Translations under genes and position numbers: made by a program
The notes under the pieces: generated by a model
Databases searched by the model: none
What the model was told of the DNA's origin: nothing
Seen by the model: only the letters and a program-made list of their open reading frames with translations
Assembly: GCA_030527825.1 (NCBI GenBank)
Contig: JAUNAC010000002.1
Coordinates: forward strand, 256,001 to 320,000
Length of the DNA: 64,000 nt
Direction of reading: 5' to 3'
Source: Lautropia sp.
GTDB taxonomy: Bacteria; Pseudomonadota; Gammaproteobacteria; Burkholderiales; Burkholderiaceae_E
In this document: piece by piece, positions 10,561-16,661 of the stretch
How the letters are laid out: the number at the start of each line of letters is the position of its first letter
Numbering within the stretch: the first letter of the stretch is position 1

Positions 10561-11564
10561 GTACACCCCTGTCAGTGAATCGAGCCACCGGGGGTACTGA
10601 AGGCGCGTCAGGCCACCGTCCCCGGTTGCTGATTACGCGGCGCATTGACCCCCGGGTACGGGCACATCTGGCCGAGGTTTTCGCAATTGAGGACAATCCG
10701 CAGGATGATGTCTGGTCACTGTGCGGGCTGCATGCCCGACTAGCAGACAAGGATGCGGCGCTGGTGGTGGCATCCGACCAGGTTGACAGGCGCTTCCTGG
10801 CGGCAGCGCCGCATTTGCGGATGGTTGCCACGGGATCGGTGGGCACCAATCACATTGATCTGACAGCCTGCCGGGCACGTGGTGTGCAGGTGACCCACAC
10901 GCCCGGTGTCCTGGACGAGGCGACAGCGGACATGGCATGGGCATTGCTGATGGCGGCGGCCCGGCGGATCAGTGAGGCTGAGCGGTGGCTGCGGGATGGC
11001 CATTGGCAGCGCTGGGCCTGGGATCAGTTTCTGGGGGCGGATGTACATGGCACTACGCTAGGGCTGATCGGCATGGGGCGGATTGGCTGCGCCATTGCCC
11101 GCCGGGCGCGTGGCTTCGGCATGGAAATCCTGTATGCCAATCGCCGGCCTTCGCCGCATGAGGCGGAGCTGGGGGCGCATCGGGTGGCTATGTCCGAGCT
11201 GCTGGCCAGGGCCGATCATGTGATATTGGCCGTGCCCTATTCGCCAGAGACCCACCATCTGATCGACGCAGCCGCCCTGGCGCGGATGAAACCGACGGCG
11301 ACGCTGGTCAACATTGCCCGGGGCGGTGTCGTCGATGACGCAGCGCTTGCGGCCGCGTTGCAGGCGGGCCAGCTGGCCGCAGCCGGGCTGGATGTCTATG
11401 AAGGAGAGCCGGACATATTGCCGGCGCTACTGGCCTGTCGTCAGGTGGTGCTGACACCGCATATTGGCAGCGCCACCCGTGACTGCCGGCTGGCGATGGC
11501 CATGCTGGCTGCCCGCAACCTGACGGCCGTGTTTTCCGGCAGACCCGCGCTGACGCCGGTGTGA
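10557..11564 (+). CDS. D-isomer-specific 2-hydroxyacid dehydrogenase (glyoxylate/hydroxypyruvate reductase-like)
   Basis: NAD-binding GLIGMGRIG, catalytic R/E/H context (NIARG...TPHIGSAT). ATGA overlap with pncB stop. Confidence 0.85.
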
Positions 11565-11588
11565 GGGCTGCCAGGCCGGGCCGCCGGA

Positions 11589-12698
11589 TCAGAAAAACAG
11601 GCGAACACCCAGGAGCAGCAGGCTTTCCGGCGAGGCACTGCCGGATTCGGCTGCATAGCGGCTTTCCGCAAAGGTGGCCATGTCGTGCGACAGGCGCGAG
11701 GTCAGACCCAGACCGATCATGCCATGGGTTTTGTAGCGCTCCTTGATGTGTCCGTTCCCGTCAGTCACCTGATGTTGCAGTTCTACCTGCAGGCGGGGCT
11801 GAACCGGCCCCAGCAGGCCACCCAGCCCATCGGCCTCGATGACGCTGCCGAATGACAGACTGGCCCGGGAGCGGTTCGCGTGCCAGCCCCGGGCGTCCAG
11901 CGGCGATGCATCCAACCGGGTACTCATCAGGTCATAGCGGCTGTAGGGCGAAAAGCTCCAGCCATAAAAAACTTCCGGCTGGTGATTGAGCTCCAGACTG
12001 ATCGCCTGTGACATGCCGGCAATGCCGAGGCCGTGATCGCCGTAACCGAGCAGAAATGCCCGGCGCGCTCGGTGCATGCCCAGTGAAAAGCTCATGTCGA
12101 GCATCAATGCCTGCGCCGGTTGCAGCGATAGATAGGCCGACAGGACGGTGCCGGAAGCCTTGCGGGTAGCGATGCGTCCGGCTGCGAAACCGATGGCGAC
12201 TTCTTCATTGACCTGTTGATCGCTGCCGATGACGGTGCCCGGGGTAGTCAACCCCAGACCGCTGCTGTTGTTGATGCTGTACAGGGTTCCCCGGACATAG
12301 ACATTGGTCTTTCCTGGTGCGCTGTTGGCCAGACGGACAGATCCGGATTTCAGCACCGGGCTGCTGGCCAGCGGAATATTGCCGCCGGTCCGGTCCGACA
12401 GCTGGAGCTGGTTCTGGAAGCGCGGCACGTCACGGCTGTAGGCGCGGGACAGATGTTTCTGGCGCGTGCGGATCTGCGCCATGTGGGTCTGCAGGCCGCC
12501 TTGGGCCTGATCCAGGAATGACCATGATGCCTGCCGGCAAATGCCGGCAATATCATCGGTATCGGCGCGGGCCAGGCCCGGTATGATCAACGCAGCCGCC
12601 AGGCACAGGGTGAGGAGTTGCCCCGGTCGTCCGGTAAACTGTGCCCGGCGAGCAGCGGGAGCCGGCAGACGACGCAGGGAGGTAACAGGCGACAACAT
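11589..12698 (-). CDS. Outer-membrane beta-barrel protein, autotransporter-translocator-like, with signal peptide
   Basis: Signal peptide (...LTLCLAAALIIPGLARA/DT). Predicted linker helix (LQTHMAQIRTRQKHL). Alternating beta-strand pattern. C-terminal beta-signal ...LLLGVRLFF ending in Phe. Start assigned at ATG 12698. The upstream 135 codons of the ORF are not protein-like. ATG 12758 is an alternative. Confidence 0.6.
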   Translation of the reverse strand: MLSPVTSLRRLPAPAARRAQFTGRPGQLLTLCLAAALIIPGLARADTDDIAGICRQASWSFLDQAQGGLQTHMAQIRTRQKHLSRAYSRDVPRFQNQLQLSDRTGGNIPLASSPVLKSGSVRLANSAPGKTNVYVRGTLYSINNSSGLGLTTPGTVIGSDQQVNEEVAIGFAAGRIATRKASGTVLSAYLSLQPAQALMLDMSFSLGMHRARRAFLLGYGDHGLGIAGMSQAISLELNHQPEVFYGWSFSPYSRYDLMSTRLDASPLDARGWHANRSRASLSFGSVIEADGLGGLLGPVQPRLQVELQHQVTDGNGHIKERYKTHGMIGLGLTSRLSHDMATFAESRYAAESGSASPESLLLLGVRLFF

Positions 12699-12944
12699 GA
12701 TGGCTGCACGCGAAAGGACATGACAACGGTGTTTCAGTGGACGATCACTGCCGGACATGTGCCCTGTGCGGCGGGAGTGGCCGGAAGGGAAAATGCCCAA
12801 GAGCATGATTTTTCTGGAAAGCATCGCCTGATCCATCCCCGGGCGGATGAGCGGTCGTGAGCAGCTTGATGGCTGGTTCATCCGGGCCGGAATCACCATG
12901 ACATTGTTATTCTTTTGTGTCCCAAAATCACTTGTTGTATCAAA

Positions 12945-13859
12945 ATGGAAACAAAAAAGCCTGAGTACGATGATGGGCGTGCAGCCCCCGGGGGAACGGC
13001 TCCGGCGGTTCGCCGGGTGGGCCTGATTCCGGCGGCAGGGCGGGGCACGCGGCTGGCGCCACTGCCTTTCAGCAAGGAGCTGATGCCGGTGGGTTTTCAG
13101 CATGCCCGCGAAGGCGCTGACCGCAAGCCCAAGCCGGTATCGCAGTACCTGCTGGAACGCATGCGCCGGGCAGGGACACAGCAGGTGTTTTTCATCACCC
13201 GCCCGGGCAAGGGAGACATCGCCGACTACTATGGGGATGGCCGCCGGCTGGGCATGGACTTTGCCTATCTGCAGGCGGGGCTGCCGTGGGGGCCGCCCTT
13301 TTCGCTTGCCCAGGCCGTGCCGTTTATTGGCGATGCCGAGGTCGTGTTCGGTTTCCCGGACATCCTGATTGATCCGGTTGATTCATTCACACCATTGCTG
13401 GCCCGTCAGGTGGCAACGGGGGCTGATGTCGTGCTGGGGCTGTTCAATGCGACGGCCCGCGAACCGGGCGATGTGATCACCTGGGATCGTGACAGCGGCC
13501 AGGTGCTGAATCTGGAGACCAAGGAGGAACGTCCCCAGCGGCCGGCGCATTACATCTGCTGGATGTTTGCTGTCTGGAACGGGCGTTTTTCCGCATTTCT
13601 GAAAGCGGAGTGTGAACGGCTGGCCGGGGTGGCACGGCAACGTCTGGCCGCCGCACCGCAGGCGCCTGCGCCGGAGTGGCCGGTCGGTGCCGTGATCTCG
13701 GCAGCCATCCGGGCTGGTCTGCAGGTCAACAGCGTCTATTTCCCACAGGGACGCTTTCTGGACATTGGCGAGCCGGATGGCATTACGGCAGCGGCGGCCT
13801 TTCCGGGCGTCTGGGATGGGCGCAGCCCATATCCGGACGAAGCCGGATCCGCCACATGA
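12945..13859 (+). CDS. Sugar-phosphate nucleotidyltransferase-fold protein, GalU-like paralog
   Basis: GLIPAAGRGTRLAPLPFSKELMPV is a close match to the GalU N-terminal GxGTRxLPxTKxxPKEMLP signature, followed by a divergent body. Preceded by an AT-rich promoter-like region. In-frame GTG (VGLIPAAG) is an alternative start. Confidence 0.7.
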   Translation: METKKPEYDDGRAAPGGTAPAVRRVGLIPAAGRGTRLAPLPFSKELMPVGFQHAREGADRKPKPVSQYLLERMRRAGTQQVFFITRPGKGDIADYYGDGRRLGMDFAYLQAGLPWGPPFSLAQAVPFIGDAEVVFGFPDILIDPVDSFTPLLARQVATGADVVLGLFNATAREPGDVITWDRDSGQVLNLETKEERPQRPAHYICWMFAVWNGRFSAFLKAECERLAGVARQRLAAAPQAPAPEWPVGAVISAAIRAGLQVNSVYFPQGRFLDIGEPDGITAAAAFPGVWDGRSPYPDEAGSAT

Positions 13860-14503
13860 TGGCCGCTGCAGACTGGCCCTGCGCATGGTGGCTGGTTCCG
13901 GCCGAGCCGCAGCGCGCCCTGTTGCAGCAATGGATAGACCGGCTGGCCATTCAGGGGCCAGGCCCGTCGTTTGAGCCCCATCTGACGCTGGCACTGTCAA
14001 CCTTGCCCGCCCGGATTGTGCCGGCCGATTTGCCTGCCCAGGCCGTGGCGGCAGGGGTGGCCAGCGTGTGCCGTCCGGATGGTCTGTCGCTGACGGCAGA
14101 TGGTCTTGGTCACGAACCGGCGTATTTCAGAGCCTTGTATCTGCGTCTGGCAACGCGGCGGTCGGAGCGTATGTGGCTGGCCGATATCGTGCGGGCCGTG
14201 GCGGCAGGGCTGGCCGGCGCGGTGGAAAGTACCGGTATCCAGACGGCCGCTACTCAGTTTGTTCCACATCTGAGCCTGGCCTATGGCGCATGGACGGCGG
14301 CGGAGCGCCAGCGGCTGGCGCAGCAGGTACCCGTGTGTGAATTGCCGGACAGCATCCGCTTCGATACGCTGGTGGGGGTCTGTCCACGCCCGGGAGCGGC
14401 CAGTCTGTCCCGGGTGGAGGACTGGCAGGTATCTCTGCGTCTGCCGCTGGTGGGCTTGGATGGGCAGGGCGAACGTCGCCTGGAAAAGACAGACGGTCTG
14501 TAA
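13856..14503 (+). CDS. 2H phosphoesterase superfamily protein (LigT / cyclic phosphodiesterase-like)
   Basis: Two H-x-[TS]-x motifs with the right spacing (PHLTLAL ... PHLSLAY). Start ATG overlaps the stop of the upstream nucleotidyltransferase (ATGA). The ORF-track 5' extension is read-through inside the upstream gene. Confidence 0.7.
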   Translation: MMAAADWPCAWWLVPAEPQRALLQQWIDRLAIQGPGPSFEPHLTLALSTLPARIVPADLPAQAVAAGVASVCRPDGLSLTADGLGHEPAYFRALYLRLATRRSERMWLADIVRAVAAGLAGAVESTGIQTAATQFVPHLSLAYGAWTAAERQRLAQQVPVCELPDSIRFDTLVGVCPRPGAASLSRVEDWQVSLRLPLVGLDGQGERRLEKTDGL

Positions 14504-14663
14504 AGAGGGATATCCCTAATCGGCAGCGCTGGAGCAGGATCGTAGGATGAAAGGTCAGGCTATCTCCTATGTCCGTTGGGCCTGTTTTCAGGTTCAGGAG
14601 GCAGCATGAGCAGTCCTATGGCAACACAGGTAGCGGACATCGCATGGCTGGAGGGGTTTCGTC

Positions 14664-14942
14664 ATGTCCCACCTGGAAGACGATTTTCGTAAAGCGCAGC
14701 AGCAGGTGCAGGCGCTTGGAGAACAGCAGGGGCGCATTGTCCAGCTCAGGCTGCATGCGTTGTTCATGCAGGCCACCCACGGTAATGTGTCCGGGCCACG
14801 TCCGGGATTTTCCGATTTCGAGGGGCGTTCACGCTGGGACGCCTGGCAGGCGCTGGGCGGCATGACGCATGAAGACGCCATGGCTGAATACATTGCAGAG
14901 GCGGCCCGTCTGACCTATCGCCAGATGCTGGGTACGGTGTAG
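14664..14942 (+). CDS. Acyl-CoA-binding protein (ACBP)
   Basis: 92 aa. Four-helix ACBP signature (LxLxALxxQAxxGxxxxxxPGxxDxxGxxxWDAWxxLxGMxxEDAMxxYI). SD GGAGGGG 6 nt upstream. Confidence 0.85.
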   Translation: MSHLEDDFRKAQQQVQALGEQQGRIVQLRLHALFMQATHGNVSGPRPGFSDFEGRSRWDAWQALGGMTHEDAMAEYIAEAARLTYRQMLGTV

Positions 14943-15062
14943 CGGGCATCCGAATTTGGGGTTTGCGCGGATACCGGATATCATTACTGGCTCCTTGCCA
15001 CACGGTCTTGGCTGTCCGCCGGCCGGTGGCTTTCTTCCTAGGGAAATCCAGAAGGGTAATCC

Positions 15063-15455
15063 ATGCGACATTATGAAATCGTCTTCATGGTCCATCCGGA
15101 CCAGAGCGAACAGGTGCCTGCGATGATCGAGCGATACAAGCAGATGGTCGAAGGCGCCAGCGGCAAGATGCACCGGGTCGAGGATTGGGGACGGCTGCAG
15201 TTGGCCTATCCCATCCAGAAAATTGGCAAGGCACACTATGTGCTGATGAACGTCGAGTGTGACCAGCATACGCTGGGCGAGATCGAAAATGCCTTCCGCT
15301 TTAACGATGCCGTCCTGCGCCATCTGGTGGTGCGGATGGACAAGGCCGAGACCGGTCCCTCGGTGATGAGCAAGCGCCTGCAGAAGGAAGAGTCCCGCAA
15401 GACATCCAGCGCTGATGCAACGGCTGCGTCGACTGACAGCAGCGCGGCCGAGTAA
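15063..15455 (+). CDS. rpsF: 30S ribosomal protein S6
   Basis: [25 protein letters not shown]... with acidic C-tail. First gene of the conserved rpsF-priB-rpsR-rplI cluster. Confidence 0.97.
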
Positions 15456-15475
15456 TCGGCACGTCAGCGTGTCAG

Positions 15476-15832
15476 ATGCAGCCTATGGGCCCGCCGGGAT
15501 CGCAGGCCAGTGAAGGGAAGCCGGCTGTTATTCAGTCGGCACTGAACGAGCTTGCATTGACGGCAGAGCTGACAGAACGTGGCATACCGCGCTACAACCT
15601 GTCGGGACTGCCCGTGACGGAAGGGGTGCTGACGCACACATCACGTCGTCCCGAGGCTGGCATAGAACGCGAGGTCCATCTGCAGATCCAGGCGATTGCC
15701 ATGGGTGAGGTTGCCAGCCGGCTGGGCAGCATCGCACCCGGTACCCAGGTGAGCGTGCGGGGGTTTCTCACGCAGGCCCGCAGGAGCACCCGCCTGATCT
15801 GTCTGCACCTGACACACATCGATCCGTACTGA
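15476..15832 (+). CDS. priB: Primosomal replication protein N (PriB)
   Basis: OB-fold protein between rpsF and rpsR. Resembles betaproteobacterial PriB (LxLTAxLxERxxxRYTxxGxP...RRS). Start codon uncertain: the homologous N-terminus begins near codon 25 of this ORF with no canonical start there. Confidence 0.75.
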
Positions 15833-15855
15833 ACACACATACAAGAGGTTTCATC

Positions 15856-16131
15856 ATGGTTGGTTTCCGTCGCGGCAGCAAAGACCGCAAACCCAAACGT
15901 CCCGCCCAGTCCGCACTGTTCAAGCGCAAAAAGTTCTGCCGCTTCACGGCTGAAAAGGTGGAGTGGATTGACTACAAGGATGTGGACACACTGAAAGACT
16001 TTGTGACCGAACAGGGCAAGATCATTCCGGCCCGCCTGACCGGTACCTCGGCTCACTACCAGCGCCAGCTGGGCGTTGCCATCCGGCGCGCCCGCTTCCT
16101 TGCCCTGATGCCCTACACCGACAACCACTGA
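15856..16131 (+). CDS. rpsR: 30S ribosomal protein S18
   Basis: [28 protein letters not shown]...[26 protein letters not shown]. Confidence 0.97.
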
Positions 16132-16202
16132 TACCCCATTGCCGGGGTGGAACAGCTGCCATCGTGGTCTGATGATGGCCCAGTACATCCCCGCAGGAGC
16201 GC

Positions 16203-16661
16203 ATGATGCAGATTATTTTGCTTGAGAAAGTCGTCAATCTTGGTCAGTTGGGTGATGTCGTCCGTGTACGGGACGGCTATGCCCGCAATTTTCTGATTCC
16301 GAAAGGCAAAGCCCGCCGCGCCACCCAGGCGGCAGTTGCCGAGTTCGAGGCCCGTCGTGCCGAACTGGAGCGGATCCAGGCTGAAAAACTGGCCGCGGCC
16401 CAGGCCGAAGGTAACAAACTGGCCGGCCGTCAGATTTCACTGACCGAGAAGGCTGGTGTGGATGGACGCCTGTTCGGCTCCGTGACCAACGCCAACATCG
16501 CTGATGCCCTGCACAAGGCCGGTTTTGCCGGTGTTCAGAAGCAGATGGTTCGCATGCCGCAGGGGCATATCAAGACCATTGGAGAGCATCCCGTTCAGGT
16601 AGCGCTGCATACCGATGTGCTGGTCGACATCACAGTGAATGTGGTGGGCGAAACGGCCTGA
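16203..16661 (+). CDS. rplI: 50S ribosomal protein L9
   Basis: [36 protein letters not shown]... Start at 16203 or 16206. Confidence 0.97.

Follow-up and report, generated by a model that had tools for sequence, protein, structure and literature searches.

In this work we looked at two overlapping genes in a 64,000-nucleotide stretch of DNA from Lautropia sp. (assembly GCA_030527825.1, contig JAUNAC010000002.1), which we call the window and from whose first letter all positions are counted. Gene 1 encodes a nucleotidyltransferase (NTase) and gene 2 a phosphoesterase of the 2H superfamily, and both together are called the pair. Comparison across genomes and metagenomes shows that the pair is a self-contained, co-inherited and tightly coupled two-enzyme operon. 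Attention had been drawn to it by an earlier note made from the letters of the window, and its claims are taken up where our results bear on them. The pair has the following features:

12945–13859, + strand: NTase gene (gene 1), RmlA/GalU fold, uncharacterized subfamily; open reading frame (ORF) from the ATG at 12945 to the TGA at 13857–13859, 304 amino acids
13020–13094, + strand: putative nucleoside triphosphate (NTP)-binding signature GLIPAAGRGTRLAPLPFSKELMPVG, residues 26–50, including R33, R36 and K44; aligns to GxGTRL...SKQLLP of RmlA
13095–13127, + strand: family-specific insertion of ~11 residues, FQHAREGADRK; a gap in RmlA when aligned
13856–13859, + strand: ATGA start/stop overlap of the two genes, read as ...CAC ATG ATG GCC...
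13856–14503, + strand: 2H phosphoesterase gene (gene 2), CPDase family, NTase-linked subfamily; ORF from the ATG at 13856 to a stop ending at 14503, 215 amino acids
13979–13990, + strand: first putative catalytic motif, H42-L-T44-L; aligns to HVTV of the Arabidopsis CPDase 1fsi
14267–14278, + strand: second putative catalytic motif, H138-L-S140-L, followed by Y143; aligns to HLSLLY of 1fsi

The ATGA overlap, already claimed in the earlier note, is read directly in the sequence and is consistent with translational coupling of the NTase and the 2H phosphoesterase. Relatives of gene 1 were collected in 80 species-representative genome loci, whose ORFs were searched with hidden Markov models (HMMs) of both proteins. 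Loci with an NTase above 300 bits were taken as the paired clade, which gives 36 evaluable GTDB species loci, and one more contig ends at the NTase. The 2H gene was found directly downstream and on the same strand in 34 of the 36, always in the order NTase followed by 2H, and in about 30 of 35 loci its start lies between −26 and +20 nucleotides from the NTase stop, often as ATGA, GTGA or TGATG. These paired loci belong to about 35 bacterial species: Burkholderiales, one Panacagrimonas and two metagenome-assembled genomes (MAGs) labeled 'delta proteobacterium'. The two unpaired loci are L032, from a Limnobacter MAG, and L040, a short Chloroflexales contig; another Limnobacter MAG (L044) does carry the pair. 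The flanks vary by lineage and include a ribosomal-protein operon, an acyl-CoA synthetase with argS, a BtuF-like gene with citrate synthase, a ferredoxin with a B12-uptake cluster, TctC with RuBisCO, a beta-lactamase-family gene with cytochrome bd, LysR with an ABC-F gene, NnrS, an FAD monooxygenase, Rrf2 and a methyltransferase. Since the 2H gene adjoins the NTase gene in nearly every locus while the flanks differ, the pairing is not a coincidence, and the possibility raised in the earlier note, that gene 2 is merely a chance neighbor, gives way to co-conservation through many flank contexts.

An independent metagenome sample, chosen through the 2H protein, gave the same picture: the NTase gene lies directly upstream of 14 of 14 partner-type 2H genes and within 4 kb of none of the 66 stand-alone-type 2H genes. 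The NTase-linked 2H proteins form a separate subfamily, which scores 160–217 bits on the partner HMM against at most 128 for other 2H proteins. Across 33 loci the pairwise identities of the two proteins correlate (Mantel r = 0.73, reached in 0 of 2000 permutations), with the 2H protein diverging faster (mean identity 38%, against 59% for the NTase). No third conserved gene came out of all-against-all neighbor clustering and Pfam scans, which gave lineage-specific synteny only, and no NTase–2H fusion was seen in the best 150 CPDase-like representatives. We consider it highly probable that the two genes work together; this is our own judgment and stands above the sum of what we grant the individual scenarios given below. 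The adjacency in about 35 species points to a two-step pathway that is as yet undescribed.

Some copies of the pair are broken. In a Burkholderiaceae MAG (FR_11) a second contig (L060:5845-7414) holds a second copy in which NTase and 2H are each split into two ORFs, either a pseudogenized duplicate or an assembly error, and the same MAG holds an intact pair (L030). In the metagenome contigs L105 (BNJT01002818) and L166 (BNJV01000222) the NTase is spread over several frames, as is the 2H gene in L166, which looks like assembly indel errors rather than biology.

The product of gene 1 is 100% identical to protein P0001 of Lautropia sp. MAGs. It matches the Pfam family NTP_transferase (PF00483) with 30.6 bits, above the cutoff of 21.2, over residues 26–203. 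On the NCBIfam equivalog models it reaches 34 bits against a cutoff of 320.25 (rmlA_long, TIGR01208) and 27.6 against 360.65 (rmlA, TIGR01207) for RmlA, 23.1 against 326.8 (TIGR01099) and 11.1 against 548 (PRK13389) for GalU, where residues 26–98 only are matched, and 22.8 against 250 for MurU. Because the equivalog cutoffs are missed by an order of magnitude, gene 1 is, as judged by these scores, neither GalU nor RmlA, and the earlier view that it is not the housekeeping galU (23–34 bits, cutoffs 320–360) holds. The same note had described a GalU/RmlA N-terminal signature followed by an insertion. The signature is present at residues 26–50, but as a generic NTP_transferase motif; its positions G26, G32, R36, S43, K44 and E45 show no variation across 58 sequences. 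The insertion is real and amounts to 11 residues relative to RmlA. It was found in 18 of 18 aligned family members with a varying sequence, and the confidence of the AlphaFold2 model dips there (predicted local distance difference test, pLDDT, of 74 for the block 51–60).

The NTase model was predicted in AlphaFold2 from an alignment of the 58 homologues and has a mean pLDDT of 90.1. Foldseek matched it to the structures of RmlA, GalU, YngB and MurU with E ~1e-16, a TM-score of 0.63–0.68 and 17–24% identity over ~270 columns. Based on this model the protein has a complete RmlA/GalU Rossmann-like nucleotidyltransferase fold, and the statement that no other GalU blocks are recognizable does not stand, as the whole fold is there and the predicted catalytic Asp139, Lys193 and Asp273 are kept. 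R36, K44, D139 and D273 are invariant in the 58 sequences and K193 nearly so; R36, K44, D139 and K193 match RmlA catalytic positions by alignment, while D273 lies outside the sequence alignment and was assigned through the FLDIG motif and the fold match. Judging by these residues, the NTase appears catalytically intact and active. The family also has invariants of its own, namely K89, D91, Y108, a PWGPPF motif, W211, F215 and a PEWP motif. A glutamine of RmlA, which we take to be its base-reading residue, has no conserved counterpart in the family alignment. Gene 1 thus shares with RmlA, GalU and MurU the full-length fold, the (A/G)xG(R/K)xTR(L/M) and SK(E/Q)L(L/M)P motifs and the equivalents of the three catalytic residues named above, and differs from them in its low identity, in its scores of 23–34 bits against cutoffs of 250–360, in the 11-residue insertion and in the linked 2H gene. 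Among 8000 candidates scored, 1177 homologues were found at E ≤ 1e-3, and identities run from 47 to 100% in the 120 listed.

The product of gene 2 is 100% identical to protein P0121 of Lautropia sp. MAGs. It matches the Pfam family CPDase (PF07823) with 37.7 bits (cutoff 21) and reaches only 13 bits on the LigT/ThpR equivalog TIGR02258, whose cutoff is 65.7. A profile built from 12 homologues aligns over its full length with 1fsi at E 4.5e-24, against E ~0.5 only for the E. coli LigT structures. The AlphaFold2 model (pLDDT 90.2) has 1jh6 and 1fsi as its top Foldseek matches (E 3e-11, TM-score 0.66/0.77), followed by LigT, YjcG, AKAP18 and Usb1, and altogether 35 2H structures in the PDB match it at E ≤ 1e-3. 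The two 2H motifs that had been pointed out in gene 2 do align to the catalytic motifs of 1fsi, and both HxT/S motifs together with Y143 are invariant across 72 homologues; the modeled fold agrees with the duplicated alpha/beta lobes of the superfamily. By sequence, motifs and predicted fold, gene 2 is a genuine 2H enzyme, and with its catalytic residues retained it appears active.

Pfam score, profile match and top Foldseek match all place the nearest characterized relatives of gene 2 in the CPDase family. With the Arabidopsis enzyme it shares PF07823, the HxT/S motifs, the tyrosine after the second motif and a tryptophan in strand 1; it differs from the plant and yeast CPDases in being bacterial, in an identity of only ~20% and in its operon with an NTase, and, unlike for those enzymes, no tRNA-splicing or KptA context was seen around it. 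ThpR/LigT (PDB 4qak and 5ldi) has a 2H fold as well and carries both HxT/S motifs (Foldseek E 7e-6), but the profile match is weak, its substrates are RNA ends, and it has no linked NTase. Some Lautropia orthologues (P0122, P0123 and P0126; e.g. L004:10851-11669) carry low-complexity insertions of 60–90 residues between the lobes, which bring them to 272–284 amino acids against 191–215, with the catalytic motifs intact. We regard each of the two proteins as a new subfamily of a well-known superfamily, so that known modules are found here in an undescribed and evidently selected combination.

Around the pair, the window has these further features:

11589–12824, − strand: divergent neighbor, putative outer-membrane beta-barrel gene (autotransporter beta-domain-like); marginal match to Pfam Autotransporter, 27.3 bits, cutoff 26
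12850–12944, no strand: AT-rich divergent intergenic region of low GC, presumed promoter region of the pair
14664–14942, + strand: acyl-CoA-binding protein (ACBP) gene; Pfam ACBP 82 bits
15008–15040, + strand: terminator-like hairpin with a T-rich tail upstream of rpsF; consensus match only

The divergent outer-membrane barrel gene of the earlier note is thus recovered, with a marginal domain match. It remains near the pair within the Lautropia lineage only and is not part of the conserved pair. Of the promoter region claimed for the pair, the AT-rich gap is there (GC 0.46 at 12850–12999 against ~0.65 in genes), but this gap upstream of the NTase shows no sigma-70 consensus on the + strand. 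A permissive scan of 11000–16500 gave no Rfam elements. A terminator scan found no terminator-like site from 14503 to 14664, between the 2H and ACBP genes, the first one being at 15008–15031, and the hairpin at 15008–15040 is likely the end of the transcription unit; because there is no such site before ACBP and one after it, the Lautropia transcript may hold NTase, 2H and, perhaps as a third gene, ACBP. Outside the Lautropia clade and its sister clade the ACBP gene is not kept downstream of the pair, and bacterial ACBP genes are little studied. Downstream of ACBP the window continues with the rpsF-priB-rpsR-rplI-dnaB block.

In the sister clade of Lautropia (L015–L021; e.g. L016:2450-7487) the pair makes up the end of a longer operon whose genes lie close together, in the order GntR-family regulator, ectoine-hydroxylase-like PhyH dioxygenase (181 bits against a cutoff of 336), DRL-like (DXR-related) oxidoreductase with a SAF domain, NTase and 2H; ACBP and the beta-barrel gene come after 2H on the same strand. 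The GntR, dioxygenase and DRL-like genes of this operon are absent from the 64-kb window. More distant NTase relatives (35–46% identity) occur with no 2H gene, and their neighbors are NAD-dependent epimerase/dehydratases, glycosyltransferases, RmlC/RmlD-like genes and DUF4910 peptidase-like genes, a context that has been read as modified-polysaccharide biosynthesis (PMC4000134). Since these unpaired relatives have nearly all invariant residues in common with the paired clade, the chemistry of the NTase is probably still the nucleotidylylation of a sugar or polyol phosphate.

Two kinds of unpaired locus were also observed. In a Chlorobiota MAG (L046:4636-8637) a DRL-like oxidoreductase directly precedes an NTase homologue, and downstream of the latter lie a fusion gene (HddC-like nucleotidyltransferase with GmhB-like phosphatase) and a uridine-kinase-like P-loop kinase; the cluster looks like an uncharacterized nucleotide-sugar cluster. 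In two gammaproteobacterial MAGs (L050:5887-7574 and L058:3455-5053) a CpdA/SpdA-like metallophosphoesterase lies ~50 nucleotides after an NTase homologue of ~38% identity. Its score of 198 bits falls below the 225 required for 3',5'-cAMP phosphodiesterase, and it may take the place of the 2H protein as an analogue, in this one lineage.

One of the questions raised by the pair is which metabolite the two enzymes would share. We lean, tentatively, toward a mechanism in which both serve sequentially on one soluble phospho-sugar, whose cyclic phosphate is opened and which is then activated to a nucleoside diphosphate (NDP)-sugar. In the first step the 2H enzyme would hydrolyze a vicinal (1,2-type) cyclic phosphate to the alpha-sugar 1-phosphate monoester; in the second the NTase would condense this monoester with an NTP into NDP-sugar and pyrophosphate. 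The shared intermediate would be a sugar (or polyol) phosphomonoester, and the net effect the salvage of a cyclic-phosphate by-product into an activated sugar. Candidate sources of such a by-product would be NDP-sugar breakdown or NAD-dependent 2'-phosphotransfer. As cited in PMC5283653 (refs 6–8) and PMC9503650, characterized CPDase relatives open a sugar 1,2-cyclic phosphate to give the sugar 1-phosphate, and since this product falls in the substrate class of RmlA/GalU-fold enzymes, the chemistry of the two steps would fit. The small-molecule context, with epimerase/dehydratases and glycosyltransferases beside the unpaired relatives and with the operon of the sister clade, also speaks for this mechanism, as does the fusion of a CPDase domain to a HAD phosphatase in another lineage (P0213, described below).

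The opening of cyclic sugar phosphates has precedents in bacteria or eukaryotes. PhnP/PhnPP hydrolyze 5-phosphoribosyl 1,2-cyclic phosphate to a sugar 1-phosphate. In the KptA/Tpt1–2H–Macro route for ADP-ribose cyclic phosphate (ADP-ribose>p, or Appr>p) a sugar 1,2-cyclic phosphate is likewise opened to the sugar 1-phosphate (PMC9503650). Those routes continue with a phosphatase (Macro) or a kinase (PhnN), whereas here an NTase would follow, and no KptA, Macro or phn genes were seen among the neighbors of the pair.

Several points weigh against this sequential salvage. We infer the order of the two steps only by analogy with known classes of products and substrates. No enzyme that would supply a cyclic phosphate (KptA/Tpt1 or C-P lyase) was found among the neighbors of the pair. 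Paired and unpaired NTases have almost all invariant residues in common, which gives no clue to the substrate, and the NTase may make an ordinary NDP-sugar with no need for the 2H product. In the Limnobacter locus L032 (5923-7433) an NTase of 448 bits is followed by a 640-nucleotide gap in which an unfiltered HMM search of the three forward frames found no 2H. Finally, characterized CPDases reportedly also cleave 2',3'-cyclic nucleoside monophosphates (2',3'-cNMPs) to 2'-nucleoside monophosphates (2'-NMPs), as Genschik et al. are said to have described in 1997, and the 2'-NMPs formed in this way are not nucleotidyltransferase substrates.

A stronger form of the sequential salvage would be a bacterial pathway so far unrecognized, in which a dedicated CPDase-type 2H enzyme opens a sugar 1,2-cyclic phosphate and a dedicated NTase re-activates the product directly to a nucleotide-sugar. 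We think this rather unlikely as it stands. Its cyclic phosphate could be ADP-ribose>p produced by KptA/Tpt1, or a cyclic compound left when a labile NDP-sugar or NDP-polyol breaks down. If the pathway is real, cyclic-phosphate by-products of sugars would for the first time have an enzymatic loop for their salvage or repair, and a new NDP-sugar class would come with it.

As the earlier note had suspected, the pairing belongs to no known route that we could find: a full-text literature search returned no description of an NTase–2H pair, which places a sugar-phosphate NTase obligatorily coupled to a CPDase-type 2H enzyme outside any pathway found there or known to us, and no PADLOC system matched. 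If the enzymes share an intermediate, a new metabolite class would follow, either nucleotide-activated sugars with a cyclic phosphate as precursor or cyclic phosphates that stem from an NDP-sugar, and it could be approached what becomes of cyclic-phosphate by-products in bacteria. To our knowledge no bacterial CPDase-family protein has been characterized, and a shared intermediate would also give the first physiological role to this family, which counts thousands of clusters at 50% identity. Because the module is limited to relatively few Burkholderiales, mostly uncultured, and to oral Lautropia, its impact would be specialized rather than general.

Another hypothesis turns the order around, so that activation is followed by cyclization in the manner of IspD and IspF. 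The NTase would make an NDP-linked sugar or polyol phosphate and the 2H enzyme would use a neighboring hydroxyl to displace the nucleoside monophosphate; a cyclic phosphate would be formed and perhaps hydrolyzed, leaving a cyclic-phosphate metabolite or a migrated phosphate. The gene order, NTase then 2H in all paired loci, fits this idea, and so does the DRL-like oxidoreductase directly upstream of the NTase in two very distant lineages, the sister clade and the Chlorobiota MAG, which parallels DXR–IspD; the DRL-like neighbor is, however, absent from most paired loci, including this window. 2H enzymes are known for transesterification in addition to hydrolysis (PMC4201822), but the nearest characterized 2H relatives hydrolyze cyclic phosphates that are already formed. 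The IspD–IspF and TarJ–TarI systems share the logic that a phosphomonoester is nucleotidylylated by a Rossmann-like NTase beside a cyclic-phosphate enzyme or a reductase, and we would take the likeness as one of logic only. IspF is not a 2H protein and forms a cyclodiphosphate, and IspD and TarI belong to another nucleotidyltransferase subfamily. We know of no 2H enzyme that acts on a pyrophosphate-linked NDP-sugar, which counts against the cyclization, and overall we consider this hypothesis unlikely.

Somewhat less probable again is that the two are independent housekeeping enzymes, co-transcribed but with no metabolite in common, for instance an NDP-sugar synthase and a scavenger of 2',3'-cyclic nucleotides or Appr>p. 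It would explain why neither a third partner nor a source enzyme is conserved, why an NTase stands alone in L032 and why the active-site residues of the NTase match those of its unpaired relatives. CPDase-like genes that stand alone are also common and function with no NTase: the family has 4631 clusters at 50% identity, and a Pfam tally of 71 neighbors gave stand-alone genes no consistent partner. However, the adjacency in 34 of 36 loci survives many flank rearrangements, the start/stop overlap is kept, the linked 2H proteins stand apart as a subfamily of their own with none among the 66 stand-alone loci, and the divergences of the two proteins correlate.

One of the two readings suggested in the earlier note was an RNA-end-modifying module. 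In such a module the 2H enzyme would open RNA 2',3'-cyclic phosphate ends and the NTase would add a nucleotide to the resulting end. Many 2H enzymes do act on RNA ends (PMC9503650). Stand-alone CPDase-like genes were seen 224 nucleotides upstream of rtcB in one lineage (L089/L090:6001-7927) and divergent from a SIR2 (sirtuin) gene in another (L087:4931-6540), neighbors that fit the role in RNA cyclic phosphate (RNA>p) or ADP-ribose>p metabolism proposed for 2H enzymes. Against this, the NTase has the RmlA/GalU sugar-phosphate fold and not a Pol-beta or ligase fold, and we know of no RNA-acting member of the RmlA/GalU fold. Its relatives sit in polysaccharide clusters, and among the neighbors of the pair no ligase, kinase, KptA, RtcA/B or HEPN/PIN gene was found. 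The 2H profile is CPDase-like rather than LigT-like (E 4.5e-24 to the small-molecule CPDase, 0.5 to LigT), and PADLOC gave no match. With no RNA-repair gene beside the pair, an NTase fold that has no RNA-acting member known to us and a 2H protein far closer to CPDase than to LigT, the RNA module is the weakest of these readings and very unlikely.

A salvage of cofactor nucleotide loops, of cobamide or CoA, by a CobY-like guanylyltransferase or adenylyltransferase and a phosphodiesterase acting on a ribose-3'-phosphate linkage, is extremely unlikely. In its favor, the Zeimonas pair (L092/L027; L092:7001-14656) is followed, after a 485-nucleotide gap, by a TonB-dependent receptor, CobU, a BtuR/CobO corrinoid adenosyltransferase and BtuF-, BtuC- and BtuD-like genes, two other lineages have BtuF-like genes close to the pair, and three have CoA-related neighbors (ACBP, acyl-CoA synthetase, enoyl-CoA hydratases). 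Against it, B12 genes are absent from most loci: across the full set, tblastn detected BtuF-like genes in only 3 lineages and no further cob genes. Upstream of the pair the window has neither a cobalamin riboswitch nor another Rfam element, CoA-metabolism families are so abundant in Burkholderiales that chance adjacency is likely, and the fold and sequence matches of the NTase are RmlA, GalU and MurU. A role in defense was also tried and rejected, as neither protein had a PADLOC match at E ≤ 1 and the pair lies in housekeeping contexts.

Among metagenomic proteins the CPDase-like domain was also observed in fusions. In P0213 (387 amino acids) it is joined to a C-terminal HAD phosphatase, and the monoester product would therefore be handed to a second enzyme. 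In P0302 (369 amino acids) N-terminal PAS and HisKA domains stand in front of the CPDase-like domain, which takes the place of the kinase ATPase domain.

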